Shown in pieces: positions 491 through 57,765 of a stretch of DNA of 64,000 bases; the stretch's first letter is position 1; the number at the start of each line of letters is the position of its first letter. Origin of the DNA: a virus (lineage: Duplodnaviria; Heunggongvirae; Uroviricota; Caudoviricetes). The translations under genes were made by a program, and so were the position numbers. The notes under the pieces are model-generated. The model was not told the DNA's origin. It ran no database searches and worked only from the letters and a program-made list of their open reading frames with translations. Location of the stretch: the IMG/VR virus record IMGVR_UViG_3300045988_158233; one strand, written 5' to 3'.

Positions 491-503
491 AAACAAGTTG
501 TTT
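491..503. promoter_or_regulatory. AAACAA-N-TTGTTT palindrome (motif A) upstream of parA
   Basis: aaacaagttgttt about 35 bp upstream of parA ATG; same 13-bp palindrome recurs upstream of several other genes. Confidence 0.4.
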
Positions 504-538
504 CAGACGATAATTATATACGCAAAGGGAACTCTCCA

Positions 539-1207
539 ATGACCAAGATCTTTGTGGTTGGCGGCACAAAGGGCGGGCCTGGCAAATCCACCGTTGCCCA
601 GCAAATTGCCGTTTGCCTGAAAGTCAAAAAGAAGAAGAAGGTTTATATCACCGATATAGATATTCAGCGCACGACAACGAGCTGGTGTGAAGACCGTCGA
701 CAGAACGAAGATCTTGAGCTGATTCCTTTTGCATACGTTCAAGATGACATCATTAAGCACCTAAAATCGCTTCAGGGTAGAGCTGAGTATGTAGTGGTAG
801 ATGCTGGTGGCTTTGACTCCGAAATTCAGCGACAAGCGATGCTGATGGCCGACGTTATCATTATCCCGCTGCGTCCTAAGCGTCGTGATTTGAAATCTTT
901 ACGTGACATCGATCCTATTATCGACAATGTTCGCAATGTAAACGACAAAGTGAAAGTCCGCGCGGTCATGAACCAATGCCCGGCTTTGCCATCACAAGTG
1001 TCTCGCATTCTAGCGGCTAAAGAGATTGTCGAGACGTTTGGCATCGAGTCTGCGCCAGTCAATCTATATAACCGCAACGTCTATGATGATGCGGAAGAGT
1101 CTGGTCGTTCTATCTTTGAAATGACCGGTAGCGAGCGCGACAAAAAGGCGGAAGCCGAGTTTGAAGAATTTGTAGATTATCTGTTGAGTCTGGAGGAAGA
1201 AGAATAA
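539..1207 (+). CDS. parA: ParA-family partition ATPase
   Basis: Deviant Walker A GGTKGGPGKST near N-terminus, ~220 aa, followed by overlapping small gene (ATAATG). Confidence 0.8.
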   Translation: MTKIFVVGGTKGGPGKSTVAQQIAVCLKVKKKKKVYITDIDIQRTTTSWCEDRRQNEDLELIPFAYVQDDIIKHLKSLQGRAEYVVVDAGGFDSEIQRQAMLMADVIIIPLRPKRRDLKSLRDIDPIIDNVRNVNDKVKVRAVMNQCPALPSQVSRILAAKEIVETFGIESAPVNLYNRNVYDDAEESGRSIFEMTGSERDKKAEAEFEEFVDYLLSLEEEE

Positions 1208-1566
1208 TGTCCATGAAAATGGGTGACCTAGCAAAGCGCAAAGAGCCTGATGCACCGGCTAAGAACACAACTCCTTTGCGCCAACCAATCAGACCACAGG
1301 GACGCCCGACTCGTGGCAAAGAGAAAATTAAAAGCCGCACGATGTCACTGGAAGACGAATACTTCGAACTGCTGGAGATGATGAAGTTCATCCCTCGCTT
1401 CGAGAAGTTCACCCGTTCTGACGTGATTCGCGCAGCCATTTTCCATCTGGCAGAGAAGTCACCGCAGGAAATCGAGGACATCGTGAAACTTAACGAGGCG
1501 ATCACTGCTGCCGATGTCACGATGCGTACCGATGAAATTAAACGCGAGTTAATGAAGAAAGGTTGA
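1207..1566 (+). CDS. small partition-associated protein (ParG/ParB-like centromere binder), tentative
   Basis: 119 aa, translationally coupled to parA, basic disordered N-terminus then helical C-terminal half; typical position of type Ib partner. Confidence 0.45.
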   Translation: MSMKMGDLAKRKEPDAPAKNTTPLRQPIRPQGRPTRGKEKIKSRTMSLEDEYFELLEMMKFIPRFEKFTRSDVIRAAIFHLAEKSPQEIEDIVKLNEAITAADVTMRTDEIKRELMKKG

Positions 1567-1576
1567 TATAAATCTC

Positions 1577-1608
1577 TAAGGCTGGTCTGCATTGGACAGC
1601 CTTAGAAA
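1577..1608. terminator. hairpin between convergent genes
   Basis: ctaaggctg...cagccttag inverted repeat between + gene ending 1566 and - gene ending 1627. Confidence 0.4.
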
Positions 1609-1626
1609 TATTTCGTTCTATGAAAG

Positions 1627-2700: not shown

Positions 2701-2804
2701 GAGGCTAAAACACTGATTCTAACATGATCTCCCTTGATAAATCTGTCAATGACATAGCATCTGGGGTTGGAGTCAAATTATGTTGTTCTTGGTATCCATT
2801 AGGA

Positions 2805-2863
2805 GCCTGTTTCTGTATATAAATAATAAGTAACTTATTAAATATATACGGAAGCAGGTCTTT
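2805..2863 (+). repeat. long AT-rich-loop hairpin, copy 1 of a shared element
   Basis: arms gcctgtttctgtatat / atatacggaagcagg; near-identical arms at 49944..50003; contains TATAAATA. Confidence 0.45.
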
Positions 2864-2965
2864 TAAAAGACACCACCAGACCAACTCCCTTCCGTTTTCA
2901 CTTCCAAAAACTGACACCAGTCGCTATCATCCGCTCATTGTGATAAGTAAGTAACTACCTACCAG

Positions 2966-3715: not shown

Positions 3716-3726
3716 CTAATACTAGA

Positions 3727-3739
3727 AAACAATTTGTTT
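3727..3739. promoter_or_regulatory. motif A palindrome AAACAA-T-TTGTTT
   Basis: aaacaatttgttt about 20 bp upstream of helicase ATG, followed by aaaggaaa RBS-like tract. Confidence 0.4.
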
Positions 3740-3758
3740 AAAAAACAAAGGAAAGCAC

Positions 3759-5099
3759 ATGACCGAACTTTGCCATACAGGACGCGGGCTGTCCGAAGAG
3801 TTTGATGAAGATTTCCAGAACAGACTGACGGCATATTTTTGTCGTGATCACGAGTTTCTTACTCGTGCGGGAGATCTGGTTGTGCCTAGCCAATTTGCCA
3901 ATGCGGCCAATGCCATATTGGTTAATATGGTTTCGGGCTATTACCGTATGTACAAGAGCGCGCCCTCTTCATCTGCAATTCTGGATATGCTTAAGCGTGC
4001 GAAACGCGATAAGACTATCCGTGAGGAACTATTCGCCGATGTTGTTGCTGCGTTTAAGCGCATCCTTGCAGAAAAATTGTCCGATACCTCGTACATGGTT
4101 GACCAGGTATCAACCTTCGCAAAAAGCGTAGCGTTTGATGATGCTCTGATTAAGGCTGCTGAACTGAAAGAGAAAGGCGACTTTCAGGGGGCGATGGCAA
4201 TCATGGCCAAGGTTCAGCAGATTGGATCGAACGAAGCGACCGGAATCTATGACTACTACACCTCCGCAAGTGAGCGATTGAAAGCGCGTGAATATGAGGC
4301 TTCAGAGGAGTATGTGCCAAACAGCATTACAACTGGACTCCCTCTGCTCGATAGGTTGTTGTACCAAAAAGGCTGGGCGAAGCGTGAAATGGTGCTCTTC
4401 ATGGGGTTCGCTAAATCCGGTAAATCGACCGCAATGGGTGAGTTTTCCATAAACGCAACGCTTGCTGGCTACAATGTTCTGTATCTCTCGCTGGAGGTTC
4501 ACACCACCATTTTATCCGACCGTTTTGATGCAAGATTGTCGGAGACAGAAATGTCCAAGCTAGTGGAACGGCGCGATGAGGTTCATCGTAAGTTGGCAGA
4601 GTTGGGAGCCACGAAGGGGATTGGTAGTTTGTGGGTGGTTGAGCGTCCGTCAGGAAGTATGTCACCGGCAGATCTGGACCGTATGCTTAACAGCATGAAA
4701 GCCAACGGCATGGTGCCTGACATGGTTGTTGTCGACTACGCAGATTTGATGCGTGCCAGTTATGACCTTCGTGATGATCGCGCCAACATTCGTAGTATCT
4801 ACACCGATTTACGTGCTCTTTATGACAAACATAACGTTGCTGGAATCACGGCATCGCAGACAAACCGTGAAGGTGGCGCGTCAGAAGTTGCCACAATGAT
4901 GCACGCCGCCGACAACATCGAAAAAGTACGTATTGCTGACCTGGTAATAACGATCAACAAAACCGAAGAAGAAGAAGCGAAAGGAGAGGCTCGTCTCTAC
5001 TTTGCTGGTTCACGTAACCAGCAGGGAGGGATCAGCATTCGCGTTAAACAAAACCTCGAACAAATGCGCTTCATTGAGCGAATCTTAGACGTTACCTAA
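3759..5099 (+). CDS. DnaB-family replicative DNA helicase (phage gp41-like)
   Basis: Walker A GFAKSGKST, Walker B VVVDYADL, SQTNREG motif, RecA-like C-terminal domain. Confidence 0.75.
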   Translation: MTELCHTGRGLSEEFDEDFQNRLTAYFCRDHEFLTRAGDLVVPSQFANAANAILVNMVSGYYRMYKSAPSSSAILDMLKRAKRDKTIREELFADVVAAFKRILAEKLSDTSYMVDQVSTFAKSVAFDDALIKAAELKEKGDFQGAMAIMAKVQQIGSNEATGIYDYYTSASERLKAREYEASEEYVPNSITTGLPLLDRLLYQKGWAKREMVLFMGFAKSGKSTAMGEFSINATLAGYNVLYLSLEVHTTILSDRFDARLSETEMSKLVERRDEVHRKLAELGATKGIGSLWVVERPSGSMSPADLDRMLNSMKANGMVPDMVVVDYADLMRASYDLRDDRANIRSIYTDLRALYDKHNVAGITASQTNREGGASEVATMMHAADNIEKVRIADLVITINKTEEEEAKGEARLYFAGSRNQQGGISIRVKQNLEQMRFIERILDVT

Positions 5100-5180
5100 A
5101 AAATAAGCGTGGAGAACACCTCCACGCTTGATTCATTGGTGAAACAACTTTTCTTTTGCCAAACCACAAAAGAAAAACAC

Positions 5181-12491: not shown

Positions 12492-12566
12492 GATGGTGTA
12501 GCTCAGCGGTAGAGCAGTTGGCTGTTAACCAACTGGTCGGTGGTTCGAATCCACCCACCATCGCCA
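12492..12566 (+). tRNA. tRNA-Asn (GTT)
   Basis: Cloverleaf by eye: acceptor GATGGTG/CACCATC, anticodon loop CTGTTAA, T-loop TTCGAAT, 3' GCCA. Confidence 0.85.
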
Positions 12567-12571
12567 ATTTA

Positions 12572-12658
12572 GGAGAGTTAGTCCGTAGAGGTAGCGGGGT
12601 AGACTGTAAATCTACTGTCATTGCGACTCGGGTGGTTCGACTCCATCACTCCCCACCA
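12572..12658 (+). tRNA. tRNA-Tyr (GTA), class II
   Basis: Anticodon stem GTAGA/TCTAC with loop CTGTAAA, long variable arm, T-loop TTCGACT, 3' ACCA; one A-C mismatch in acceptor stem, D-arm imperfect. Confidence 0.65.
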
Positions 12659-12662
12659 AATT

Positions 12663-12738
12663 GCCGGTTTAGCTCAGTTGGTAGAGCGCCTGCCTTGTAA
12701 GCAGGATGTCAGCGGTTCGAGTCCGTTAACCGGCACCA
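12663..12738 (+). tRNA. tRNA-Thr (TGT)
   Basis: Acceptor GCCGGTT/AACCGGC, anticodon stem CCTGC/GCAGG with loop CTTGTAA, T-loop TTCGAGT, 3' ACCA. Confidence 0.85.
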
Positions 12739-12962
12739 ATACAACGATAAGATCATTACGGTTAATCGTCGTTCATGTGCACAATGACTGGTCGAAAGGT
12801 AGTGATCTTACCGTTGTGGTGGATTCGCAGACTGATGCGATAGCTTTCTTGGATGTTAGGGAAATGCGGCCGCAAATCTTCCCTTTCGCGAGCGGTGATC
12901 GTCCGTAGTCCTAATTGGCTGCACCGTATGCCGGAGATTCAGTACCGGCTATCACAACGGCC

Positions 12963-13049
12963 GGAGAGTAGGGAGCATGGTGCTCAAGCGGTCTTGAAAA
13001 CCGTCCCATTGCGCAAGCGATGATGGTTCGATTCCATTACTCTCCGCCA
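12963..13049 (+). tRNA. tRNA-Ser (TGA), class II
   Basis: Acceptor GGAGAGT/ACTCTCC perfect, anticodon loop CTTGAAA, long variable arm, T-loop TTCGATT, 3' GCCA. Confidence 0.75.
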
Positions 13050-13051
13050 GA

Positions 13052-13129
13052 CACAGCGTTGAGCGGTTTGGCCTTTTAATCAACTCGATTAAGACTCCGC
13101 TAACATAAACCAGACCGCTCAACGCTGTG
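13052..13129 (+). repeat. perfect 16-bp inverted repeat immediately after tRNA-Ser
   Basis: cacagcgttgagcggt ... accgctcaacgctgtg separated by 46 nt. Confidence 0.5.
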
Positions 13130-15121: not shown

Positions 15122-16225
15122 ATGAAAAATAGCTTTGACAGAGCACGCGCTGCGGAGAACACCTCAAAAGAGGCGATAGAGTATCTCGAAAGAGCATCTC
15201 AAATGCAGGCCGTTATGATCTCCCAGGTCAGCAATGACATGAGATTCTCGGACGCATTCATGTTATTCACTCGCTTATCTCTGCTGATAACCAGACGTCG
15301 GCCAGAGATCGCTGTTCATTGTATTTTGATACATGTTTTGCCGCACATTGCCGATGTAAAAGTAAGTGACATTAATAGGTTCATGGTGAACCAACTGGTC
15401 AACCCACTAATACTGGATGGCAAAATTGTTATGGGCCGCCGCGTTTTCTCTCTGATGAAGCAGTTCCTTAGCTGGTGCGCCTTCCAGGGGATGATAGACG
15501 TGTCACCGTTAAACGATATGTCACTTAACAAAGTTGCCGGTGGCGCAAAGCCCACACCTCGCGAGCGGAAGCTGACCGACGCAGAGGTATGGGTGTTCTG
15601 GAATATATGGGACTACTTCAATGTGTGTGCTGGTACAAAATGGGCGGCCAGGCTGTGTCTTGTATCAGCAAGACGACCTGACGAAGTACTGCGGGCTAAA
15701 AAAAGTGAGTTCAATCTTAAGCGTGGGGTTTGGAATCAAGGCAAGAGGAACAAATCTGCCCGTGAGCATTCTCTGCCTTTAAGCTCATTAATGCGCACTT
15801 GTATTGAAGAGTTGTTCGAATATGGTAAAGACAGCCAGTGGCTCGTGCCTTCGAATAAAAAAATCGGGAAAGACCTTCCTATGTCTAAAGTGGCAATAGC
15901 CCAGGCATTACGTCGTATTCTGGAACGACCAGAACTGATGGAGCTTGAGCCATTTACACCCCGAGATTTGCGCCGTACTGCGCGTAGTTACTTCCCAGCA
16001 TTAGGCATAAGCCAGGAGGTATCACGTAAAATCATGAACCACAGTCTTGAGGGGATAGATCGGGTCTACGACCGGCACGATTATATGGACGAGATGCGAG
16101 ACGCCTTAGAAAGTTTCTCGACGTACATCGCATCAATCGTAGAGCAACCGGATTTAGACGAAATTGACCACAAATTTAAGGGAGATCGTCTATCAACAGA
16201 GCTTATTCGTGTAAATTTTTCATAG
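15122..16225 (+). CDS. tyrosine recombinase / integrase (P4-type)
   Basis: Catalytic-region motifs LVSARRPDEV (R), HSLPL, TPRDLRRTARS, and C-terminal RVYDRHDYMDEMRDAL with tyrosine nucleophile. Confidence 0.75.
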   Translation: MKNSFDRARAAENTSKEAIEYLERASQMQAVMISQVSNDMRFSDAFMLFTRLSLLITRRRPEIAVHCILIHVLPHIADVKVSDINRFMVNQLVNPLILDGKIVMGRRVFSLMKQFLSWCAFQGMIDVSPLNDMSLNKVAGGAKPTPRERKLTDAEVWVFWNIWDYFNVCAGTKWAARLCLVSARRPDEVLRAKKSEFNLKRGVWNQGKRNKSAREHSLPLSSLMRTCIEELFEYGKDSQWLVPSNKKIGKDLPMSKVAIAQALRRILERPELMELEPFTPRDLRRTARSYFPALGISQEVSRKIMNHSLEGIDRVYDRHDYMDEMRDALESFSTYIASIVEQPDLDEIDHKFKGDRLSTELIRVNFS

Positions 16226-16606
16226 AGACTTTATGGCCTCAACAACCTTTTGTGATGCGCCTTTCTCTTTACCGAATCGCTCGTTATATGCAGCAAGAAC
16301 CTGTTTTTCGTCCTCGTTAAGAGGAGCAGTGCCTTCTTTGTATAAAAATGCTGCGAGTTCGGGTTGGCGTTCTTCCAGCACCATCATCATAAGACGACTT
16401 GGCTCAATACCCAGTGCCAGCGCCAGCGGACGAACCTTATCGATAGGCAAAGGAATTTTGCCGCTTTTAATTAAAGAAAGGTTGTTGGCGTTTTTATACC
16501 CAATTGTTTTGGCTATCTGGGCCTGGCTCATAGGTGAGGATTCAATCAACCCTGCGATAAAAGCAGCGTAGCGACTTTCTATAAATTCAATCTTGTTATC
16601 AGACAT
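16220..16606 (-). CDS. XRE-family helix-turn-helix transcriptional regulator
   Basis: HTH segment MSQAQIAKTIGYKNANNLSLIKSGK; 128 aa; 3' end overlaps integrase stop. Confidence 0.65.
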   Translation of the reverse strand: MSDNKIEFIESRYAAFIAGLIESSPMSQAQIAKTIGYKNANNLSLIKSGKIPLPIDKVRPLALALGIEPSRLMMMVLEERQPELAAFLYKEGTAPLNEDEKQVLAAYNERFGKEKGASQKVVEAIKSL

Positions 16607-16637: not shown

Positions 16638-16651
16638 GGTAAGTGCTTACC
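16638..16651. promoter_or_regulatory. motif B core palindrome GGTAAGTGCTTACC adjacent to regulator gene start
   Basis: Perfect palindrome 30-45 bp upstream of the XRE regulator ATG; same core at 39700..39720. Confidence 0.45.
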
Positions 16652-16857: not shown

Positions 16858-17070
16858 ATGAACACCACTATTTCCAGCCTAATCGCTCTTGAGATCGGAC
16901 ACGTACAGAAATTAGCTGATGAGTGTGTAGCTGACATCCTCACCGATCTACCGAATGAGCAGATTCAGGTTGGTGTGAATGACACAACTGGATTTATATT
17001 CGAACTTAACAACAAACGCTTCACGCTTCTCAATACCGGCTCCGGGTCTTTAGCCGTCAGAATCTGTTAA
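16858..17070 (+). CDS. hypothetical small protein
   Basis: 70-aa ORF. Confidence 0.4.
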   Translation: MNTTISSLIALEIGHVQKLADECVADILTDLPNEQIQVGVNDTTGFIFELNNKRFTLLNTGSGSLAVRIC

Positions 17071-17168
17071 CCCCTCTTCTCCCTGCGCGAATGGCTTAGT
17101 TCCCTGTTCGCGCAGTGCTACATTAAACACACTAGTAAATAATTTGTTTTCATAACAAAGGATTAGCC

Positions 17169-30658: not shown

Positions 30659-30686
30659 CAGGCGTCCAGTTGGACGCCTTTTTTAT
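30659..30686 (+). terminator. rho-independent terminator
   Basis: aggcgtcca-gttg-gacgcct followed by TTTTT. Confidence 0.6.
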
Positions 30687-30705
30687 CGCAATTATCTTAT
30701 TAAGA

Positions 30706-30718
30706 AAACAATTTGTTT
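30706..30718. promoter_or_regulatory. motif A palindrome
   Basis: aaacaatttgttt about 17 bp upstream of ATG at 30735. Confidence 0.4.
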
Positions 30719-30734: not shown

Positions 30735-31160
30735 ATGGCAGCTATTAAGAAACTCTACGATGCCGCAAACGTGGCTCTGGATGTTATTGATGATGAAGTA
30801 GCAAAAGGCTTTCCTGAACCTGATTGGGCGCATCAGCTACGAAACGCTATCGCAGAAATGACCCCACCAGATCCAACCCCCGACGAGACAGACTGGCAGC
30901 GATTCATCCGTATGTACGCTCAGGAAATAGGTCCAACGCCAACGGCAGAGCAGGCAATGCTGCTGAAATACTTCAAAGAGGCGGGAGAGGATTTACCAAT
31001 TGATGACTCAGCATATTGGTTCCACTGCGCATGGCGTAAGTATGACGTGATATTCACACAAGGCATGGGAAGCAAAGATATGGTTGTGTGGCATCTACTC
31101 CATATAGACACAGCCGTTGACAGAGTTATTGAACAGTTTTTCCCTAAACAAGAAGATTGA
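30735..31160 (+). CDS. hypothetical protein
   Basis: 141-aa ORF. Confidence 0.45.
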   Translation: MAAIKKLYDAANVALDVIDDEVAKGFPEPDWAHQLRNAIAEMTPPDPTPDETDWQRFIRMYAQEIGPTPTAEQAMLLKYFKEAGEDLPIDDSAYWFHCAWRKYDVIFTQGMGSKDMVVWHLLHIDTAVDRVIEQFFPKQED

Positions 31161-36463: not shown

Positions 36464-38380
36464 ATGAAGTTTTTAAAGCTCCAGGTTGAGAATTTTATGG
36501 CTATCGCCAGCGCGGAGGTCGAGTTAGATCAGCGTGGTTTAGTGCTCATTCAGGGTGTTAATAGTGATGATAGTTCCGCATCAAGTAATGGCTCTGGAAA
36601 GTCAACTCTAATGAATAGCCTGATGTGGTGTCTTTATGGCGAAACAGCTCATGGTGTGAAGGGTGACGATGTGTTGTCTACCGACCATGAAAAGAACTGT
36701 CGTGTTGCAGTAACCATCGAGGATGAAGGCAAGAGATACGCAATCATTCGTCACCGTAAACACAAAGAGTTCAAAAATCGTCTTATCGTTCGTGGTGAAG
36801 ATGGCGATATGACGAAAGGCAAAGATGCGCTGACGCAGGAGTTCGTCGAGCGTCTGATCGGTGCATCTAAAGAGGTTTTCATGGCTTCCATCTATGCGAG
36901 CCAAGAAGCTATGCCAGATTTACCTGGAATGTCCGACAAAAACCTCAAAACCATCGTAGAAGAAGCCGCTGGCGTTGACAGACTGACACGCGCCTACGCT
37001 ATTGCTCGTGAGCGAGCTAATGCAGCTGCCGCACGTATGGATGTGGTTAAAACCAAATTGGAGTCGACAATCTCGACCATTGAGGCAACACAGTCAGAAA
37101 TTGAGTCAGCGAAAGCCTCCTCTGAATCATGGGAGCAAGAGCGTTCTAAACGTTATGACGATGCCCTGGCTGGGCTGGCCAGTGCCGAAGTTGAGTTAAC
37201 GGAAGTTGAACTTGAGATCCGCACTCTTCCCGAACAGATACGTGATACCGAGAAGGCAATCGAAAGTGAGCGCAAAAAGTTAGCCTCAAAAGAAGAACAT
37301 GACGCCAAGTTGCTCAAAGTTCGTGGTGCGATAACTGATATTCGGGCAAGCATCAAAGCTACAGAAAATAGTCAGGCTGATGCAATGAACCGCGCGCGTA
37401 ATTTTAAGACCAAAGCAGAAGAGGTTGGTACTAAAGTGGGATCACCATGCCCTACTTGTGGCAAAGCCTACTGCGAAGAAGATCTATCAACGGTGAAGGA
37501 GAATTTCATTGAACAAGCACGTCAGGAAATTGGTCAGGCGAAGACACTTGCAGAGGCAATGGCTAAACACAAAACGAATCTTGAGAAAGCGTTAAGCATT
37601 GAGTCTGCCCTTGTTAAAACGACACCTGATGTAACGGCTATCATTGCCCGGATTGAAGAGCTTACGAAACAACTCTCATCTTTGCGTCATCGTGAGAAGG
37701 AGGTTGTTGCTATTGAGTCTCTTGTGACTCGTGCTCGTACTGAGGTCGATCGTATATCAAAAGAGATTAATCCGTTTATTGCTCTTATCGCCAGACACGA
37801 AGATAACTTGGTATCCAGTAAGTCTACCTTCAAGTCCTTAAAAGATGAGTTGAAGGCTATTCAGGAACAAACGTTGCTATTGGAAAAAGCTCGTCAGGTC
37901 TACTCTCCTGCCGGGGTGCGTTCTCATATTTTGACGTCTGTTACGCCTTTCCTGAATACACGCACTGCCGAGTATCTCAATACGTTGTCTGACGGGAATA
38001 TTACTGCTGAGTGGTCGACGATGGATGTCACTAAAAAAGGTGAGTATCGCGACAAATTCAACATTAGTGTGCAGAAGAAAGGTTCAAGTAAGTCGTTCCA
38101 GACCCTCTCTGGTGGTGAGAAGCGGAAGGTTCGCATTGCGTGTTCTTTGGCATTGCAGGATCTGGTTAGTAACCGGGCGAGTAAAAACATCGATTTGTTT
38201 ATCGGCGACGAAATTGACGATGCACTCGATACAGCCGGTCTTGAACGCCTCATGGGTATTCTGGAGTCCAAAGCTCGCGAGCGAGGTACTGTGCTGATTA
38301 TCTCCCATAAAGAGATGAAGTCATGGTTCCGGGAAACTATTACGCTGGAAGTTAAAGAGGGGCGCAGCTATGTCGTTTAA
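36464..38380 (+). CDS. SbcC/Rad50-like ATPase
   Basis: Walker A GSGKST, long coiled coil with CPTCGKAYC zinc hook, signature LSGGEKRK and Walker B DLFIGDEID. Confidence 0.8.
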   Translation: MKFLKLQVENFMAIASAEVELDQRGLVLIQGVNSDDSSASSNGSGKSTLMNSLMWCLYGETAHGVKGDDVLSTDHEKNCRVAVTIEDEGKRYAIIRHRKHKEFKNRLIVRGEDGDMTKGKDALTQEFVERLIGASKEVFMASIYASQEAMPDLPGMSDKNLKTIVEEAAGVDRLTRAYAIARERANAAAARMDVVKTKLESTISTIEATQSEIESAKASSESWEQERSKRYDDALAGLASAEVELTEVELEIRTLPEQIRDTEKAIESERKKLASKEEHDAKLLKVRGAITDIRASIKATENSQADAMNRARNFKTKAEEVGTKVGSPCPTCGKAYCEEDLSTVKENFIEQARQEIGQAKTLAEAMAKHKTNLEKALSIESALVKTTPDVTAIIARIEELTKQLSSLRHREKEVVAIESLVTRARTEVDRISKEINPFIALIARHEDNLVSSKSTFKSLKDELKAIQEQTLLLEKARQVYSPAGVRSHILTSVTPFLNTRTAEYLNTLSDGNITAEWSTMDVTKKGEYRDKFNISVQKKGSSKSFQTLSGGEKRKVRIACSLALQDLVSNRASKNIDLFIGDEIDDALDTAGLERLMGILESKARERGTVLIISHKEMKSWFRETITLEVKEGRSYVV

Positions 38381-39765: not shown

Positions 39766-42125
39766 ATGATAAGCATCGTAAAACGTAACGGCCAAACAGA
39801 GCCGTTATCCGAAGAAAAATACAACCGCGTCGTAATGTATGGCGTAGAAGGCATTCGTGGTGTAAGCGCATCCGCTGTAGCAATGGGAGCTGCGGCCAGC
39901 ATTTTTGATGGGATTACCACCAGCCAGTTGCATGAGGCTTTGGTTAAATCTGCCGCTGATTTGATCTCACCAGAAGCACCAAATTACTCACAGGTGGCTG
40001 CCCGCCTGAACATTTTTAAAATCCGCAAAGATGCCTTCGGTCGTTACGACTATCCGAACTTCTACCAACACATTGTCAAGAACGTTAACAAGGGCGTTTA
40101 TGACAAGGATTTGCTGACACATTATTCGTTTGAAGAGATCGAAGAACTCGGCAATTACATTAAGCCGAAACGTGACGATCTTTTTGGCTATGCAGCTACG
40201 GTGCAGTTGCAAAGCAAATACCTCGTTCAAAACCGTGTTACTGGTGAGATTCATGAGGGGCCGCAACATATCTATATGCTGGTAGGCATGTGTCTGTTCC
40301 AGAATTGGGAAGACGACTGCGCTGGCAAAACACGTATGGAGATGGTCAAAGGTTTCTATGACGTTACAAGTACGTTCAAACTGTCTCTGCCCACACCAAT
40401 CATGGCCGGCGTCCGTACTCCAACCCGTCAGTTCTCCAGTTGTGTGCTGATTGAGTCTGGCGATAGTCTGAAAGGGATTAGTGCAGCTTCAGCCGCAATT
40501 ATCGACTACGTTTCACGTCGTGCTGGAATTGGTATTGGTTTTGGCCGTATCCGTGCGCTGGGCAGCGAGATCCGCAATGGTGAAGCCACCCATACTGGAG
40601 TTATTCCATTCCTGAAGCATTTCCAGACGGCTGTTAAATCTTGTTCGCAAGGTGGTGTTCGTGGTGGCGCAGCAACAGCGTTTTACCCGATCTGGCATCT
40701 TGAAGTTGAAAGTCTGCTGGTGGTGAAAAATAACCGTGGTATTGATGAAAACCGCGTTCGCCATCTTGATTACGGCGTCATGAGTAACCGTCTAATGTAC
40801 CGTCGACTCGTCAGAAGCGAGAACATCACTCTGTTCAGCCCGCATGATGTGCCTGATATGTACGAAGCCTTCTTCACAGACCAGGAGCTGTTTGAAAAGC
40901 TGTACCATAAATACGAAGCCGATGATTCAATTCGCAAGAAGTCAGTACCTGCCATTGAGCTGTTCTCATCTCTGATGCAGGAACGAGCGTCCACGGGCCG
41001 AATTTATATTGCGAACGTCGATCATATTAATGAGCATGGCGCTTTCATTCCTGCTCTTGCACCTGTTCGCCAGTCAAACCTGTGTATGGAGATCACCCTA
41101 CCCACCCGTCCACTGGCATTTACCGACGACCCGAACGGTGAGATCGCGCTATGCACTTTATCCGCTTTTAACCTCGGAGCCATCCGTTCACTGGAGTCTC
41201 TTAAAGAGGTGGCGTTCTATGCCGTTGCTGCACTGGATTCGTTACTGGATTATCAAGACTATCCGATGGAGGCAGGCCGAGTTGCCCGCCACTCAAAGTT
41301 GCTTATCCGATGGAGGCAGCCGAAGTGCCTGCCAAAGCTCGTCGTAGCTTGGGAATTGGTGTAACCAACTTTGCTTATTACCTGGCAAAGAATGGCGTTC
41401 GTTATTCTGATACCGCTGGCAATAAACTGGTGCATGAAACGTTCGAAGCTATCCAGTATTACCTTCTTGATGCCAGCTGCCGACTTGCTGAAGCAAAAGG
41501 TGAGTGTGACTGGTTTGAGCAGACCAAATACGCAATTGGTCAGTTGCCGATCGACCATTACCGTTCTTCATTAGACGAAAGTGGCGAAACCAACTTTGAG
41601 TTAAAGATGCCGTGGGAAGAACTGCGTGAACGTATTGCAAAATACGGCCTTCGCAACTCCACTCTGACGGCACAAATGCCATGCGAGACTTCCAGCCAGA
41701 TCACTAATTCCACCAACGGCATCGAACCGCCTCGTGGCCCGGTGTCAGTGAAATCTTCTAAGGACGGCATCGTCAAGATGGTCGTGCCTGAGTTTGAAAA
41801 ACTGAAGGAACAGTATGAATACCTGTGGGATATGCCGGACAACCGCGGCTATCTGACAAAGGTGGCGATCATCCAGAAGTTCTTTGACCAGGCTATTTCG
41901 GCCAATACCAACTATGACCCTTCTCGCTTTGAAGGCGATAAAGTCCCAATGATGACGCTACTGTCAGATTTGCTTCTCGCCTACAAGATGGGAGTTAAAA
42001 CGCTTTACTACCACAACACCAGAGATGGTGCAGGAAAGCGTGATGACGACGAACCGCAGAATCCACTGGCGCAAGCTGTAGCCGTCGAGCCAGAAGATGA
42101 GTGCGACGGAGCCTGCAAAATCTGA
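39766..42125 (+). pseudogene. nrdA: class Ia ribonucleotide reductase alpha subunit, reading frame interrupted near 41276..41319
   Basis: Two ORFs (39766..41364 and 41310..42125) together align to full-length NrdA; 44-nt segment flanked by 16-bp direct repeats causes the frame change. Confidence 0.8.
41276..41319 (+). repeat. 44-nt insert within nrdA bounded by 16-bp direct repeat
   Basis: tatccgatggaggcag at 41260..41275 and again at 41304..41319; intervening unique 28 nt gccgagttgcccgccactcaaagttgct. Confidence 0.8.
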
Positions 42126-42130: not shown

Positions 42131-42149
42131 GGTGGGGGATATCCCCACC
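42131..42149 (+). terminator. GC-rich hairpin after nrdA
   Basis: ggtgggggatatccccacc followed by T-rich tract. Confidence 0.5.
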
Positions 42150-42187
42150 TTCTCTTTGATTTGTAAGCCTTGTTTAAACACATAAGA

Positions 42188-42200
42188 TAACAACTTGTTT
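42188..42200. promoter_or_regulatory. motif A palindrome (1 mismatch) upstream of nrdB
   Basis: taacaacttgttt; a second half-site ttgtttaaac at 42170. Confidence 0.35.
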
Positions 42201-52353: not shown

Positions 52354-52409
52354 CGGTTGTTAGTGCATATGCATTGACCGTCTTTGCGTAAGCAATTTAT
52401 GTAACCAGA

Positions 52410-52422
52410 AAACAATTTGTTT
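52410..52422. promoter_or_regulatory. motif A palindrome
   Basis: aaacaatttgttt about 25 bp upstream of ATG 52447. Confidence 0.4.
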
Positions 52423-52446
52423 TGACAAATAGCAAAAGGAAAACAC

Positions 52447-52872
52447 ATGTTAGGTTTCTTCAAAAAGAAAACTCGTAAAGCTGTTATCGAAGTCAAAAAA
52501 ATGGAGAACCGTGATGCGGTTGAAGCCACCGTGTGGGGCGGGTACATGATCTCCTATGCCAACGGTACATGCGATGCAAAAGAAATTTCCATTCTTGAGA
52601 AAACAATTGCAGCTCTGCCTGCATTTTCTCCTTTTGCTGGTGAGATTGCCCAGATGAGCGCCAATATCCGCGCTCAATACGAAGCCTCACCGCGCCGTGC
52701 TAATGCCCAGGCTTTACGTGAGCTGGCGGATGTGGCCGGGACTGATGATGCAGTAGATGTACTGTGTCTGTGCCTTGATATTGCCGACCAGGACGGCATT
52801 GATGAACCAGAAGAGCAGGCGCTGAAAAAGATCGCCCAGGCGCTTCAGTTGTCACTGGATGCTTATCTCTAA
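52447..52872 (+). CDS. TerB-like domain protein (tentative)
   Basis: Two TerB-type acidic motifs: YANGTCDAKEISILEKTI and IADQDGIDEPEEQALKKIAQALQLS. Confidence 0.5.
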   Translation: MLGFFKKKTRKAVIEVKKMENRDAVEATVWGGYMISYANGTCDAKEISILEKTIAALPAFSPFAGEIAQMSANIRAQYEASPRRANAQALRELADVAGTDDAVDVLCLCLDIADQDGIDEPEEQALKKIAQALQLSLDAYL

Positions 52873-53138
52873 TGCTTGAGAGATTCCGGCTTGTGACCGT
52901 CATTGCTCTTCTGGTGATGGCGGTGTTGGTGGATTTTACGGGAAAGATGATGTCTGTCATTTCTGATGGCGTCCTCATTGGTCTGGCGATCTACTTCGCT
53001 TATCCGCTAGTCCGTAAAGCAACGTGTTAATGACAAGGGCCAAATGGCCCTTGTGTTTCGTTGACCGAAATAGAGAGTTTGCACCTTTACGTTTAGCTTG
53101 CTCCCCTTTTATGCCACATCACAATAAAGCCAATAAGA

Positions 53139-53151
53139 AAACAACTTGTTT
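53139..53151. promoter_or_regulatory. motif A palindrome
   Basis: aaacaacttgttt about 19 bp upstream of ATG 53170. Confidence 0.4.
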
Positions 53152-53169: not shown

Positions 53170-53739
53170 ATGTGCAAGAAATGCAAAGCGATAGCTGATG
53201 AACAAAACGCCTTATTCGAAGAAATGGATGCTAATGAACTGGTCAAAATGTTAGCCATTCTTCGAGGAATAGAAGACGTTTCCATATTTGAGAGAGTGGT
53301 TACAGCACTTAATTTTGAGTCCACCTTTGAAGAGCCAACTCAGGTTGTAGCTTTAGCACATCATTTCGGTGTTCATTATCTTGCTGAAAAAGAGCGCGCT
53401 GATAAGTTGCAGGCGACTTTGGATATGGTGAGCGAGACTCAACGAACTGATGACACTAACAAGAGTGAGGCGATTATTGCCAGCAAAGATCGTGAAATTG
53501 CTGGGCTTAAATCCTCTCTAACGATGTTGATGTCTGCGTTCAATCTTATGTCTTCTCAGGCGGGTTATAAAATGCCATCACTAAACAGCGATGATCCGAT
53601 GGCCGTTCGTCAGCTTTTGGGAGCAATGGCCGACCAACTCGACGACACAAAGAGTCGCCTTGAAGACATGATGCGTGAGTTAAGCCATCGACATAACCTC
53701 GCAACACAACCACACAAAGTCTTTCAAAGCTCTAATTGA
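53170..53739 (+). CDS. hypothetical protein
   Basis: 189-aa ORF, N-terminal CKKC. Confidence 0.45.
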   Translation: MCKKCKAIADEQNALFEEMDANELVKMLAILRGIEDVSIFERVVTALNFESTFEEPTQVVALAHHFGVHYLAEKERADKLQATLDMVSETQRTDDTNKSEAIIASKDREIAGLKSSLTMLMSAFNLMSSQAGYKMPSLNSDDPMAVRQLLGAMADQLDDTKSRLEDMMRELSHRHNLATQPHKVFQSSN

Positions 53740-54075: not shown

Positions 54076-54077
54076 TT

Positions 54078-54793: not shown

Positions 54794-54795
54794 TT

Positions 54796-56481
54796 ATGAA
54801 TACAGCCCTTTCCATCATCGACGATGCCAACTCAAACACTGCTATCGACTATCGGCAGGAAATGAACGTCATCCACGAAATTGTGGCCGAGTGCGAGAAA
54901 GAGATCGCCTTCATGTATCAGGTTCACGACTTCGTTTATGGCGACGAACGCCACAACATGATTAATCGCCTGCTGAGACTAAACCATCGACCAGATGAAG
55001 ATCGCTCGCGTTTAAATCGAGGTTGGTTGGATAAAGTCGATCTGGAATGGGTGAAACAGAATATTTGGGCCGAGTACTGGAGGAAGGTCACGGACATGAC
55101 TAACGTTTTGCTGATCATGCCAGCTTCCCGTCGAGATGAGTGGCGCGAGCAGTTTATAGAGGGCAAACAGGAAGTCATCAAAACTGACAGAACCGGCTAC
55201 CAGATGAAGGTTAAAGAGTTCGTTGGTGTACCGGAGTTCAAAGCAGAAACGGTCATACCCACGATGCTTAATTTGCTGAATGACAGGCACAAATATCTCT
55301 CTGAGCGCGTGTATGGCTTGTTTAAGGCGCTGAGTCCTGCGCACAAGACAAATAAGACAAACGGTTTCAGCGAGCGTCTGATAATCGCTGACTGCATTTC
55401 TGATTTCTGGCGGGACAGCGTTAGCGTGAACTATCGCAAAGAGGACTACATCGACGATCTGCGTGTCTTGCTTCATTTCTTCGCGCACAAAGAATTTATT
55501 ACCATCAACCGCACTGCTGAGGTGCTATCAGCTGCGTATCGGGCAAACGACTGCCAGACCGGTGACTGGATGAACGTCGATGGAAATCTGATGCGCGTGA
55601 AGATGTTCAAGAACGGCAACGTTCACTTTGAAATACATCCTGACGTGGCCTGGAAGTTGAATGAGGTGCTGGCTTACAGTATGCCTGCTGCAATTCCCGC
55701 GCCATGCCGAACTGCGCCAAAAACACGGGCACCAAAGCAGTTCGGGTTAATCCAGAAGACGATCTCCGTGCCGGTTCGCACTGCGCTTCGTGACGGGCGA
55801 TTTAGCAAAGACAAAGGCGTATGGTACTTCTCTGATTCAGCTCTCCAGAAGTCGCAGGTGGAAGAGCTTGAGCGCACACTGAGCTTCATTGGCGGCGTGC
55901 AGGAGAAAAAGCACTGGCAGTTCCCGTATGAGATCGGCCATACGCTAAATACGATTGTGGCTACCGGTTTAATACCGGATACAAAATCACACCAGTTCTA
56001 CCCTACCCCACGCTTGATTGCTGAGTACGTTGCCAGAGCCACTGAATTGAAGCCTGGTGAGAAGTTGTTGGAGCCTCAAGCCGGACGTGGGGATCTTCTG
56101 GCCTATATTAACGCCGATCTGGAAGATGTTACCTGCATAGAAATCGCACCTCTCTTCGCTGATATCCTGCGTGGAAAAGGGTATACGAACACGATTTGCT
56201 GCGACTTCATAAAGTGGTCTGAGGACAACGCAGGTTATCAGTTCGACAAAATCGTTATGAACCCGCCGTACTCGCTTGGTCGTCATAGAGAGCACACGCT
56301 GGCTGCGCTGGGGCATCTGAAAGTCGGCGGGCGTCTTGTAGCAGTATTGCCGGGCACTGCGCCAATACTGGACTGGATGACGATGGATAATTACGTTTAT
56401 GCCAGAGGGAAGTCGTTTACCAACGAGTTTGAAGACACAGGGATCACAGTCAGCGTATACGTTTTCAAACGCGTTAAATGA
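54796..56481 (+). CDS. DNA methyltransferase with ~380-aa N-terminal domain of unknown function
   Basis: C-terminal SAM motif LLEPQAGRGDL followed by catalytic VMNPPYS (amino-MTase). Confidence 0.65.
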   Translation: MNTALSIIDDANSNTAIDYRQEMNVIHEIVAECEKEIAFMYQVHDFVYGDERHNMINRLLRLNHRPDEDRSRLNRGWLDKVDLEWVKQNIWAEYWRKVTDMTNVLLIMPASRRDEWREQFIEGKQEVIKTDRTGYQMKVKEFVGVPEFKAETVIPTMLNLLNDRHKYLSERVYGLFKALSPAHKTNKTNGFSERLIIADCISDFWRDSVSVNYRKEDYIDDLRVLLHFFAHKEFITINRTAEVLSAAYRANDCQTGDWMNVDGNLMRVKMFKNGNVHFEIHPDVAWKLNEVLAYSMPAAIPAPCRTAPKTRAPKQFGLIQKTISVPVRTALRDGRFSKDKGVWYFSDSALQKSQVEELERTLSFIGGVQEKKHWQFPYEIGHTLNTIVATGLIPDTKSHQFYPTPRLIAEYVARATELKPGEKLLEPQAGRGDLLAYINADLEDVTCIEIAPLFADILRGKGYTNTICCDFIKWSEDNAGYQFDKIVMNPPYSLGRHREHTLAALGHLKVGGRLVAVLPGTAPILDWMTMDNYVYARGKSFTNEFEDTGITVSVYVFKRVK

Positions 56482-56501
56482 TAGGTAAATACTTACTTAA
56501 T
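56480..56501. promoter_or_regulatory. motif B-like palindrome
   Basis: gataggtaaatacttacttaat overlapping MTase stop. Confidence 0.35.
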
Positions 56502-56542
56502 TTGTGTAAGAATGTAATAACTAAACGATAAGAGAAAAACAC

Positions 56543-57247
56543 ATGAACAACCTCCAGTTAGAGCATTTTAACGTCACAGGCCATTCTGATTTTCCTTTCA
56601 AGTTTACATTGAAAGGTTATGCAGAGGATGCGGTAGGCCAGATCATTATTGATAAAGGCATCGTTAAGTTTGAGGGGGATTTTGATGAATCCGCGAAAAC
56701 ATTCATAGACTTCGTTGCCAAACGTTGGAGCGAGCAATGGAAAGACCTGGAAAAGCGCGCTAATGAGTTTGATCGGTTCATGGATGCAATGGATACAGCA
56801 AAAGAGGCTCTTGCTGCCGGGACTCCGTTAGATCTGGAGTCACTTTTCAACGGCGAAGTGGCCTCTGCGATGTTCGCCACCATGTTCGCGGGTGAGTTCG
56901 TCCGCAGCGGTGCCAAAAACTACCTTGAGCTGGATTACAACGTCCCTGCAATTGGCGATTTCGTCGTTACCATCCAACGCAAAGAAGGTAAGACGCCAGG
57001 TGAACGCGTCGCAGAGCTTGAGGCCGTTGTGGATCAGCGTAACGGAGAGTGTGACCGTTTGATCAACGAGCTTCATGCACTTCGGGAAGAAAGAATATGC
57101 GCGGGTAGTAATACACGTAATGCAGCGGATATCTACTTCCAGTTAGTTGAGGAATGCCAGATTCCACCAGGTGGCTCTCTTGTCGATTACGTCAGACATT
57201 TAATGGCGGAAGTTAACTCCAGCCATAAAGATGGTGAGGTGCGCTGA
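56543..57247 (+). CDS. hypothetical protein
   Basis: 234-aa ORF, first of tightly packed operon. Confidence 0.45.
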   Translation: MNNLQLEHFNVTGHSDFPFKFTLKGYAEDAVGQIIIDKGIVKFEGDFDESAKTFIDFVAKRWSEQWKDLEKRANEFDRFMDAMDTAKEALAAGTPLDLESLFNGEVASAMFATMFAGEFVRSGAKNYLELDYNVPAIGDFVVTIQRKEGKTPGERVAELEAVVDQRNGECDRLINELHALREERICAGSNTRNAADIYFQLVEECQIPPGGSLVDYVRHLMAEVNSSHKDGEVR

Positions 57248-57627
57248 TGTTTGGCATTGATGCACAGCGTATAGCCGCTTTTGCAAAAAGTCCTCTTGAT
57301 AATCCCTTGTCTCGTAGTGAGCAAATGGCGCTGGCAAGGCTTTTTCTTCACATTCAAAAACAGGCAGACGTTTTCAATAACATGCCTGATCAACCTATTC
57401 TGGATGGTCACATCCAGATGGTCATTAACAGTCATGAGAAAGGCTGGGCTGCAATCGTCCCCTGCACAATTACATACAAGTTGGCGAAAGAGGTTCAAGA
57501 GTTTCGAAAAGCCAGTGTCGAATCGGAGTCTACCAAAGCCGCAATAAACACTCTTATTCGCATGGGGTTCACATGGACCGGTGGAGCCTACTGGCAAGCA
57601 CCTCAACCCATTTTATCCGGCAATTAG
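57247..57627 (+). CDS. hypothetical protein
   Basis: 126-aa ORF overlapping previous stop. Confidence 0.4.
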   Translation: MFGIDAQRIAAFAKSPLDNPLSRSEQMALARLFLHIQKQADVFNNMPDQPILDGHIQMVINSHEKGWAAIVPCTITYKLAKEVQEFRKASVESESTKAAINTLIRMGFTWTGGAYWQAPQPILSGN

Positions 57628-57765
57628 GCGCTACAAATCCTTCTGCATGAATAAATAAAGGCCATAACTTATGTCCTTAAATAAATTGTTTTCTACCTTT
57701 TCTTATTTGTGAAAATAAACCAGCACTTGGTAGTGCTTATGTAACAGCAAAGAAGAGAAAAACAC

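Follow-up and report, generated by a model that had tools for sequence, protein, structure and literature searches.

What does a short palindrome do when it recurs just ahead of functionally different genes of one replicon: is it read as DNA or as RNA, and which protein could bind it? The question arises from a stretch of 64,000 nucleotides (hereafter the window), which belongs to an E. coli SSU5/pHCM2-like phage-plasmid.

The motif in the window and in related elements

The palindrome AAACAANTTGTTT occurs five times in exact form in the whole window (at 491, 3727, 30706, 52410 and 53139), while none was expected and none was found in any of 100 dinucleotide-preserving shuffles of the window, which served as the null for the motif counts. 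Allowing one mismatch adds the copies at 17137, 42188 and 57679, giving eight sites vs. 0.45 expected and a highest shuffle value of three. Matches with two mismatches are at chance level (5 observed vs. 4.0 +/- 2.0 expected) and, therefore, a degenerate copy upstream of the primase region, preceded by a terminator-like hairpin (5105-5129), is listed only as a possible site (Table 1). All eight sites are intergenic. The first-pass annotation had described a 13-bp palindrome 17-35 bp before start codons, followed by a characteristic leader. Every one of its positions was confirmed, seven of the eight sites agree with the distance (16-35 nt from the motif end to the ATG), and these seven are indeed followed by an A-rich leader with a GGA-type ribosome binding site (RBS). 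The dyad is also real, with halves of 6 bp in inverted orientation and 7 bp from centre to centre, but it is part of a longer, less symmetric motif than the one described: AGA precedes the palindrome at seven window sites (AGT at 17137), and at 57679 the complementary TCT stands after it. The true unit is the asymmetric 16-mer AGA-AAACAAnTTGTTT.

Table 1. Copies of the motif and genes of the par operon in the window. DUF7238 was matched on the Cyrano orthologue of ORF 30735-31160.
Feature	Position	Strand	Sequence or product	Mismatches	Context
Site 1	488..503	+	AGA-AAACAAGTTGTTT	0	35 nt before parA ATG at 539
Site 2	3724..3739	+	AGA-AAACAATTTGTTT	0	19 nt before DnaB-like helicase ATG at 3759
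Site 3	17134..17149	+	AGT-AAATAATTTGTTT	1	19 nt before CobT-like gene ATG at 17169
Site 4	30703..30718	+	AGA-AAACAATTTGTTT	0	16 nt before ORF 30735-31160 (DUF7238)
Site 5	42185..42200	+	AGA-TAACAACTTGTTT	1	31 nt before nrdB ATG at 42232
Site 6	52407..52422	+	AGA-AAACAATTTGTTT	0	24 nt before TciA/TerB-like ORF at 52447
Site 7	53136..53151	+	AGA-AAACAACTTGTTT	0	18 nt before ORF 53170-53739
Site 8	57679..57694	-	AAATAAATTGTTT-TCT	1	upstream inverted class; 74 nt before ATG 57766
Possible degenerate site	5142..5154	+	AAACAACTTTTCT	2	28 nt before ATG upstream of primase region
parA	539..1207	+	small Walker-type ParA, 222 aa		first gene of site 1 operon
Candidate binding protein	1207..1566	+	119-aa ORF		starts at parA stop

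A search for the motif in related elements, as proposed in the first-pass annotation, gave 17-20 sites in each of four relatives (Cyrano, SSU5 and two Klebsiella lineages), all of them intergenic and often at orthologous genes; no site is more than about 90 nt from a start codon. In the SSU5-like family, the site persists where its flanks have diverged, being the best-conserved block of otherwise diverged intergenic regions. Site 1 is kept in Cyrano, SSU5 and Klebsiella pJN2-26; of its sequence, only TTTAGGCTATA...TAAGAAAACAnnTTGTTT is left in the divergent Klebsiella lineage, where the parA upstream region is otherwise unrelated, and a distant lineage has 2-3 direct half-sites upstream of parA. 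The block TTAGAAAACAAnTTgTTTAA at site 2 is conserved in four genomes and the 25 bp upstream of it have diverged; this site was also found in the divergent Klebsiella lineage. The orthologues of site 3 in SSU5 and Klebsiella have the exact consensus, and site 5 is kept in SSU5 and pJN2-26 and lost from the divergent Klebsiella lineage. In the intergenic region of site 6, AAAACAAnTTGTTT is the sole block besides the RBS that is conserved across four lineages. In relatives the site is found, in addition, at the head of the terminase/structural operon and of many small accessory ORFs, so that the earlier assignment to early or replication genes was too narrow. The literature searched contained nothing on this motif, which apparently marks an undescribed regulon of about twenty transcription units.

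Position relative to promoters and level of action

The sites come after terminators, and either adjoin -10-like hexamers or stand 19 nt upstream of them. A strong terminator (30660-30679) ends 27 nt before site 4, terminators at 42131-42149 and 53033-53054 precede sites 5 and 7, respectively, and site 8 directly follows the hairpin ending the previous gene. Two position classes can be distinguished. Class 1 sites lie 11-40 nt before the start codon, which would correspond to about +1 to +20 of the transcript. Class 2 sites are found 51 bp further upstream, inverted and at a fixed distance of 19 nt from a GATAAT-like -10, where their TTGTTT half would overlap the predicted -35 position. At some promoters the two copies occur together, their AGA/TCT ends pointing towards the core promoter. 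In the window, seven of the eight sites are downstream of a -10-like hexamer (at site 7, CACAAT at 53120-53125, 10 nt upstream of the AGA), as are most of those in the E. coli and Salmonella elements, and about a third to half of the family sites are upstream of the -10 and inverted. Site 8 belongs to the latter: it stands 19 nt upstream of GAAAAT (57711-57716), the putative -10 of the ORF 57766 promoter, and would overlap its -35 region. The same arrangement, palindrome-TCTnCCTTTT-N-GA(T/A)AAT with 19-nt spacing, is also present in SSU5, Cyrano and both Klebsiella lineages. The operator for coordinated control that the first-pass annotation suggested at the start of the transcript thus fits the terminators, the -10/-35 positions and the conservation, although the start points themselves are predicted from the sequence.

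A scan for consensus sigma-70 promoters (TTGACA and TATAAT hexamers 16-18 nt apart) gave no hit upstream of any site, and sigma-70-type matches are depleted in the window (24 vs. 37.6, 22 vs. 29.2 and 11 vs. 32.0). Consensus sigma-70 promoters at the sites were rejected on account of the missing hits, and the promoters of the recurrent cassettes consist instead of GATAAT with TTGTTT 19 nt upstream. Many promoters of small ORFs are cassettes of this kind and plainly paralogous, with about 65 bp in common (palindrome-TCTACCTTTTnTTATTTGnGATAATAAnnCCAAnAAGA-palindrome; site 7 has the family form ...CACAATAAagCCAATAAGAAAACAA...), and upstream copies with a decayed left half retain CTTT(T/G) as a remnant at the -35 position. 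Both observations would suit a motif without dedicated regulator, that is, a promoter-plus-leader cassette spread by duplication and recombination, in which TTGTTT is -35-like and the A-rich part a leader or translation enhancer; a common Enterobacteriaceae host factor would likewise suit a motif that is unchanged across hosts of several genera. We consider this highly improbable, since the non-cassette promoters of parA, dnaB, cobT, nrdB and tciA share the 16-mer alone, and there it is the most conserved block, and neither a -35 hexamer nor an unstructured leader would have any use for strict dyad symmetry of both halves. In addition, we know of no enterobacterial regulator with this consensus.

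An RNA-level element had also been suggested. However, a hairpin formed by the palindrome would contribute no more than -0.7 kcal/mol, the seven leaders fold no better than shuffles (z from -0.7 to +1.3), the one-base variants are one-sided and never compensated, and an Rfam search of the window returned only three tRNAs, with no family matching the motif. A structured cis-regulatory RNA was therefore rejected. Together with the position of class 2 outside the leader, the negligible hairpin and the uncompensated variants indicate that the site works on DNA and not on RNA.

For the same reasons it is very unlikely that the A-rich/U-rich leader is bound by CYRAN_114, a FljA-family protein (Pfam Flag1_repress) encoded outside the window, which would repress translation as FljA is reported to do on fliC mRNA. 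The gene, which matches Pfam PF03614 (E 1e-80), was seen in every element checked; of 50,697 phage records, none but SSU5-like ones have it, and it is found in 835 plasmids, including 345 of Klebsiella and 62 of Yersinia (Y. pestis pMT1-type), hosts that are believed to be non-motile. Moreover, the proximal sites do lie in the predicted 5' leader, and the Salmonella fliC leader AGCCCAATAACATCAAGTTGTAATTGATAAGGAAAAGATC (a primer sequence in PMC3410353) has CCAATAA, CAAGTTGT and AAGGAAAA in common with the phage leaders, the last of these being an RBS that stands about as far from the ATG in both. FljA, however, is reported to act on RNA, preventing fliC mRNA translation (PMC2652032), whereas here the inverted sites upstream of the -10, a large share of the total, are outside leaders. 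The similarity to fliC is short, with only 7 specified bases in the shared core and a CCAA to CAAnTTG spacing that is 2 nt off. The phage-plasmid protein shares only about 35% identity with true FljA and is only 33-43% identical in a lineage that keeps the motif unchanged. In the lysogen its level is no more than about two times the background, and its gene may simply serve for conversion, directed against host flagellin.

The putative regulon and its candidate regulators

On balance, and with modest confidence, we favour the motif as an operator for an element-encoded dimeric regulator, which would co-regulate about 20 promoters (eight in the window). A dimeric DNA-binding protein from the element would bind the sites and control the units that they head, most likely as a repressor occluding RNA polymerase, and the replication, nucleotide-metabolism, packaging and accessory operons would be kept quiet during plasmid maintenance.

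The leading candidate for the binder, put forward tentatively, is the 119-aa product of 1207-1566, which may be a ParG/omega-like partner of the small ParA. This ParA lacks an N-terminal DNA-binding domain, and its near-identical Cyrano orthologue matched Pfam AAA_31, MipZ, CbiA and ParA. The 119-aa protein has a disordered basic N-terminal tail, followed by IKSRTMSLEDEY and FTRSDVIRAAI, a pattern that looks ribbon-helix-helix-like, as in ParG or omega, and a small Walker ParA directly followed by a small basic protein is the layout of type Ib par operons. No repeat array was found next to the par operon; a single 16-mer is present upstream of parA, and the sites are dispersed instead. Site 1 would allow the protein to autoregulate parA, and the dispersed sites would be its operators, perhaps doubling as scattered centromere sites. 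That a ParG/omega-like partner binds about 20 scattered single sites, serving at once as a distributed centromere and as silencing operators, seems to us less likely than not.

The positions of the class 2 copies could also be those of an activator. A palindrome at about -38 might be bound after induction by an element-encoded protein recruiting host RNA polymerase to promoters devoid of a -35, which would define a middle/late promoter class comparable to those of Mu C/Mor, P2 Ogr and P1 Lpa. The candidate would be CYRAN_123, a conserved, winged-helix-like protein of 88 aa whose gene lies just upstream of the small terminase gene, outside the window. Such promoters, with a GATAAT-like -10 but no consensus -35, would be missed by the sigma-70 scan, as they are, and the upstream class holds its 19-nt spacing strictly constant. 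CYRAN_123 is 78% identical between motif-sharing lineages and at background in the lysogen, where motif-headed genes are silent as well. This role is nevertheless unlikely: activation from downstream of a -10-like hexamer, where most sites of the window and of the E. coli/Salmonella elements are, is rare, non-cassette promoters differ in their spacing to the -10, and the parA promoter, which has a site, is active in the lysogen, yet CYRAN_123 is unexpressed.

A loading or operator site for CYRAN_119 or CYRAN_120, two ParB_N-domain proteins, is likewise highly improbable. It would work in the manner of KorB of RK2, which has 13-bp palindromic operators at many promoters or some way off from them. 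The format would be adequate (a 13-bp palindrome with a free central base, in about 20 dispersed copies at the -35 flank or nearby) and both proteins are 66% conserved between motif-sharing lineages. However, only the ParB N-terminal domain was detected in them and no DNA-binding domain was identified, their genes are at background in the lysogen, and their own promoter region is without a site. To our knowledge, the palindrome is also unrelated to known parS or OB consensus sequences.

Known systems with dispersed operators

In P1, the C1 repressor acts on many operators scattered over the plasmid prophage of about 100 kb, each overlapping the promoter of a lytic or replication function. The dimeric repressor proposed here would resemble it as one element-encoded protein with many dispersed, promoter-overlapping operators, but C1 binds as a monomer to an asymmetric 17-mer (ATTGCTCTAATAAATTT), whereas the motif is a 13-bp dyad with a one-sided extension of 3 bp, and its sites also head the packaging operon. 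KorA and KorB of RK2 (IncP) have 12-13-bp palindromic operators at many promoters, coordinating replication, maintenance and transfer; some of these operators are immediately upstream of the -35, and KorB can act at long range. RK2 and the present element both have short palindromic operators at a large number of their promoters, but proteins and sequence differ, and here the sites keep close to start codons.

The omega protein of pSM19035, a ribbon-helix-helix partner of a type Ib ParA ATPase, regulates several unrelated promoters, and the operator described here consists of two short units, like the omega diheptad. ParG of TP228 (parH) is another ribbon-helix-helix partner of such an ATPase (PMC3130281). 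The likeness lies in a small protein whose gene directly follows that of a small ParA and which combines a flexible basic N-terminal tail with a ribbon-helix-helix-like core, and the difference in the centromeres, known as arrays of 7-12 units beside the operon, whereas here single or paired dyads are spread over about 20 promoters and 100 kb. Neither protein has sequence similarity to the 1207-1566 product. A parallel in arrangement is N15, also a phage-plasmid, whose centromere consists of four inverted repeats (IR1-4), single palindromes at separate places of the genome, and whose bound protein can silence a nearby promoter (PMC7205306). In contrast, N15 has a type Ia SopA/SopB system (ParB-family) with a 16-bp GC-rich site in four copies (PMC7205306), while the element studied here has a small-type ParA and about 20 copies placed precisely within promoters.

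The literature searched contained nothing on the wiring of the lysogeny and lytic programmes of SSU5-like phage-plasmids, for which a conserved 16-bp site at the heads of about 20 transcription units provides a promoter map and a defined regulon. If the binder were the partition protein, the family would clearly exemplify the use of one set of sites for both segregation and gene silencing, and plasmid segregation would be directly coupled to the decision between lysogeny and lysis. SSU5-like phage-plasmids are common in clinical E. coli, Salmonella (pHCM2), Klebsiella, Enterobacter and Yersinia, and can carry resistance genes (PMC9600943, PMC12217456); pHCM2 of S. Typhi is a member of the family, which has genes in common with pMT1 of Y. 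pestis.

Conservation and composition of the site

The 13-bp palindrome of the AAACAA-N-TTGTTT type, which the first-pass annotation had placed just ahead of several ribosome-binding sites, is genuine, occurs far more often than chance allows and is conserved across the family; as a cis-regulatory DNA site it would define a regulon of some 20 promoters. Its presence in the window was confirmed at five exact and three one-mismatch positions, all of them intergenic (Table). No exact match to AAACAANTTGTTT was obtained in 100 dinucleotide-preserving shuffles, and the eight matches with up to one mismatch compare with 0.45 expected, while two-mismatch matches were at chance level in the window (5 vs. 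4.0 expected). Seven of the eight sites end 16-35 nt ahead of an ATG, which is itself preceded by an A-rich ribosome-binding site (RBS) of the GGA type. Since the dyad is preceded by AGA at seven sites (AGT at one of these seven), the true unit is the asymmetric 16-mer AGAAAACAAnTTGTTT, a site also written out as AGAAAACAATTTGTTT.

The first 20 kb of the window are 96-99% identical to E. coli plasmids of about 110 kb such as NZ_OW849379.1, about 97.8% identical to Escherichia phage Cyrano, which strain LF82 carries as a phage-plasmid, and about 80% identical to Salmonella phage SSU5. According to the annotation of the matching records, the window is the non-structural half of an SSU5/pHCM2-like phage-plasmid, with parA, genes for a DnaB-like helicase, a primase and a ligase, a tRNA cluster, an integrase with an HTH regulator, CobT/CobS-like genes, dnaE, recombination genes, repA, nrdAB, thyX, folA and many small ORFs. 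A search of related elements, proposed at the first pass, yielded 17-20 sites in each of four relatives: SSU5 (19), Cyrano (17), Klebsiella phage pJN2-26 (17) and a divergent Klebsiella plasmid lineage (20; NZ_CP027864, NZ_CP084809). At the DNA level the first three of these are about 76-80% identical to the window, and the divergent lineage is 69% (ParA) and 68% (DnaB) identical to it at the protein level. The site is kept at the orthologous genes parA, dnaB, cobT, nrdB, the TciA/TerB-like gene and ORF 53170, and in the relatives it also heads a series of small accessory ORFs and the small-terminase/structural operon, there sometimes as two copies 25 bp apart. In aligned orthologous upstream regions, the 16-mer stands out as a conserved island: AAAACAAnTTGTTT is invariant upstream of dnaB, cobT and tciA, where the surrounding 20-40 bp have diverged, and the parA upstream regions of the two major lineages have only TTTAGGCTATA...TAAGAAAACAnnTTGTTT in common. 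An exact-pattern scan of viral contigs returned mostly single chance matches and SSU5-like contigs, with no new lineage, and P0030 had no match in viral contigs.

Coordinates of the palindromic sites and of other features in the window and in related elements
Feature	Location	Strand	Remarks
Palindrome, exact	window 491, 3727, 30706, 52410, 53139		
Palindrome, one mismatch	window 17137, 42188		
Palindrome, one mismatch	window 57679		different class: complement TCT on the downstream side; after the hairpin ending the preceding gene; 19 nt upstream of GAAAAT; 74 nt before ATG at 57766
Strong intrinsic terminators	window 369-386, 30660-30679, 42131-42149, 53033-53054		25-105 nt upstream of four window sites
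Right half-site with following segment	window 3733-3751, 17143-17161, 52416-52440		TTGTTT, then AACAAAGGA or similar within 3-5 nt
Promoter cassette	window 57692-57718; SSU5 (L004) 38332-38369; loci L133, L134		about 65 bp
ORF after parA	window 1207-1566		119-aa product
tRNA cluster	window 12492-12735		three tRNA genes (Rfam)
tRNA region	window 12633-13072		93% identity to tRNA region of phages P7 and D6 (megablast)
Integrase	window 15122-16225	+	
HTH regulator	window 16220-16606	-	divergent from 70-aa ORF
70-aa ORF	window 16858-17070		
Palindrome GGTAAGTGCTTACC	window 16638-16651		integrase/HTH region
GGTAAG/CTTACC arms	window 16758, 16823		integrase/HTH intergenic region
nrdA, broken	window 39766-42125		overlapping ORFs 39766-41364 (532 aa) and 41310-42125 (271 aa)
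S24 peptidase	window 61490-61879		129 aa
FljA-family gene (CYRAN_114)	Cyrano 100780-101301 (L007:780-1301)	-	
FljA-family gene	NZ_OW849379.1 L132:21625-22140		
CYRAN_117	Cyrano 103221-103499	-	92 aa; after UvsW-like helicase

A promoter cassette, TCTnCCTTTTnTTATTTGnGA(T/A)AATAAnnCCAAnAAGA, recurs ahead of many small ORFs across the family, a sign that promoter and leader may have been spread together as modules, by duplication or recombination. In three leaders, the segment that follows the right half-site amounts to one more AACAA half-site, the third, joined directly to the RBS, and in the RNA folds UUGUUU pairs with this AACAA-RBS segment and not with the upstream AAACAA; it could serve as an extra protein subsite or as a weak RBS-sequestering pairing.

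Promoter context and mode of action

Proximal sites lie 11-40 nt and distal sites 53-89 nt before the start codon. Where both are present, they are 51 bp apart from centre to centre and mutually inverted, with TCT and AGA facing the core promoter, in the layout palindrome-TCTnCCTTTTnTTATTTGn-GATAAT-AAnnCCAAnA-AGA-palindrome; in all cases examined, 19 nt lie between the distal site and the GATAAT-like hexamer. Many promoters of the divergent Klebsiella lineage have the distal copy only, and their leader goes directly from CCAGAAAA to the RBS. Because of the terminators upstream of them, four of the window sites would head new transcription units. No consensus sigma-70 promoter was found at the sites in a scan of the window, and sigma-70 matches were strongly depleted relative to shuffles, with 11 vs. 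32.0 ± 6.3 between 40001 and 60000 and with 24 vs. 37.6 and 22 vs. 29.2 in the two parts of 1-40000 that made up the rest of the scan. In the cassette promoters GATAAT would be a good -10, and the only -35-like element is TTGTTT, 19 nt upstream. With GATAAT taken as the -10, transcription would be expected to start at the conserved CCA(A); the proximal dyad would then span about +7 to +19, and the distal one about -44 to -32. At the helicase promoter the dyad would cover the start itself, since AGA comes 1 nt after the end of the -10-like hexamer, which is TAGTAT, or TACGAT in relatives. Promoters of the phage RNA polymerase type and of the N4-like hairpin type were both rejected, as -10-like hexamers are present and the family annotations contain neither an RNA polymerase nor a large unassigned ORF.

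The first-pass annotation had proposed either an operator at the transcript start or an RNA-level element, and the second proposal was not supported. Any hairpin formed by the dyad would have a stem of no more than 5 bp, rich in A/U. In seven leaders, folding was no more favourable than in shuffled controls (z -0.7 to +1.3); only two of the folds contained the palindrome hairpin, at about -0.7 kcal/mol. The natural variants are all one-sided (C4 to T, G10 to A, T11 to G, A5 to T and others), the Rfam scan of the window returned three tRNAs only, and the distal class falls outside the leader. Therefore, we take double-stranded DNA to be the form in which the site is recognised; the dyad symmetry suggests that the protein is a dimer.

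One particular RNA mechanism had to be weighed, that of FljA. CYRAN_114 of Cyrano is an FljA-family protein (Pfam Flag1_repress, E 1e-80) with a sub-threshold Hfq-like match at residues 122-164; it is full length in every SSU5-like element checked but only 33-43% conserved in identity in the divergent lineage. Of 50,697 phage records, only SSU5-like ones contained it, and it is present in 835 plasmids, including hundreds from Klebsiella and Y. pestis. Both are regarded as non-motile, and the known target of this family, flagellin mRNA, should be absent from such hosts. FljA has been reported to block translation of the fliC mRNA (PMC2652032), and the Salmonella fliC leader, AGCCCAATAACATCAAGTTGTAATTGATAAGGAAAAGATC, as read from a published deletion primer (PMC3410353), has CCAATAA, CAAGTTGT and AAGGAAAA in common with phage leaders such as gCCAATAAGAAAACAACTTGTTTaagcattAGGAAAAacacATG (site 53139). 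However, this common core consists of seven specified bases only, the spacing in fliC and phage leaders differs by 2 nt, and the distal sites would be left unexplained, so that we regard an FljA-type mechanism at the motif leaders as improbable.

The sign of regulation was considered with the lysogen RNA-seq values available for every Cyrano gene from the LF82 study (PMC9928086, S1 table). Motif-headed genes are at background (median 9.8), with terS at 7, dnaB at 21, cobT at 8, CYRAN_58 at 6, nrdB at 13, tciA at 7 and CYRAN_87 at 7, the exception being the parA operon (parA 50, next gene 89, third 55). Such silence would be seen if a repressor were bound, but equally if an activator were absent. 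Repression is favoured because most sites lie downstream of the predicted -10, at distances that vary among the non-cassette promoters, and because both locations, one over the -35 and the other over or after +1, are classical for occlusion. Operator-mediated repression by an element-encoded dimer is the most likely mechanism, a reading that we hold with moderate confidence. The literature searched contained nothing on the motif or on the promoter architecture of SSU5-like elements. Among the closest functional likenesses are the dispersed C1 operators of P1 and the KorA/KorB regulon of RK2, neither of which matches the SSU5-like site in sequence. Omega of pSM19035 and ParG of TP228 (PMC3130281) are likewise alike in function and are not sequence members. 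The same applies to phage-plasmid N15 (PMC7205306), which has four separate centromere palindromes and whose bound SopB can silence a neighbouring promoter.

Candidate binding proteins

Conserved small proteins were screened as binders, including CYRAN_117, CYRAN_114, a pair of ParB_N proteins and CYRAN_123, all of them encoded outside the window. Our best candidate, put forward tentatively, is the ParG/omega-like product of ORF 1207-1566. This ORF is part of the operon that the site at 491 heads, shows expression in the lysogen and begins at the stop codon of a small ParA without a DNA-binding domain; the pair is therefore organised like a type Ib partition cassette. The repeat array beside the operon by which type Ib systems are defined is not present. 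Its disordered basic N-terminal tail, with an invariant MGDLAK, is followed by IKSRTMSLEDEY...FTRSDVIRAAI, which by its sequence would resemble the strand-helix-helix pattern of ParG, omega, CopG and Arc. RPQGRPTRGK..IKSRTMS(L/I)EDE and FTRSDVIRAAI are invariant across the motif-keeping lineages, the rest of the protein going down to 48% identity, a pattern such as might be expected of a protein bound to keep recognising about 20 sites. Searches of Pfam, PDB and Foldseek gave no match, and its profile retrieved only 18 relatives from 1.84 billion representative proteins, none with a changed DNA-reading strand with which co-variation could be tested.

A distant lineage of IMG/VR contigs of about 100-110 kb (loci L137-L143; represented by 2597490185_000004 and 2675903675_000001) has a ParA that is 54% identical, a DnaB that is 60% identical and a small protein with 35-45% identity. 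Within 20 kb at these loci the palindrome was not found, and dnaB is without a promoter of its own. The 170 bp upstream of parA contain two to three copies of a half-site, AAAA[CT]AA, in one orientation, a 20-30-fold enrichment that is inflated by the AT-rich intergenic composition and is therefore only suggestive; at one locus the sequence reads ATAAGAAAACAAT, exactly as in the left part of the SSU5-type site. This would tie the half-site to the parA cassette and is compatible with the flexible use of direct and inverted repeats by RHH proteins.

The HTH repressor beside the integrase was rejected as binder: its own divergent region has other palindromes and no motif copy, and SSU5, from which the module is absent, yet has 19 sites. 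The integrase/HTH module is expressed in the Cyrano lysogen and looks like a separate immunity or integration switch. CYRAN_117, an RHH-like protein, was made unlikely by strand residues that vary between genomes and by the lack of a detectable homologue in the divergent lineage, which keeps the motif. Its gene is among the best expressed in the lysogen (114 vs. a background of 9.8), and it may act as a repressor of the immunity type whose operators differ from lineage to lineage. The two ParB_N proteins (66% identical between lineages) and CYRAN_123, a winged-helix-like protein of 88 aa (78% identical), are at background in the lysogen. The S24 protein was also discarded as binder, as it consists of the peptidase domain only, UmuD/HumD-like, with no DNA-binding part. 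It is highly expressed in the Cyrano lysogen (148) and, since Cyrano is SOS-inducible, with ciprofloxacin as inducer, it may take part in induction. Finally, nrdA, which Cyrano, SSU5 and NZ_OW849379.1 have as one uninterrupted gene (about 771 aa), is split in the window by a frameshift near 41310-41364, which reflects either a pseudogene or a sequencing error.
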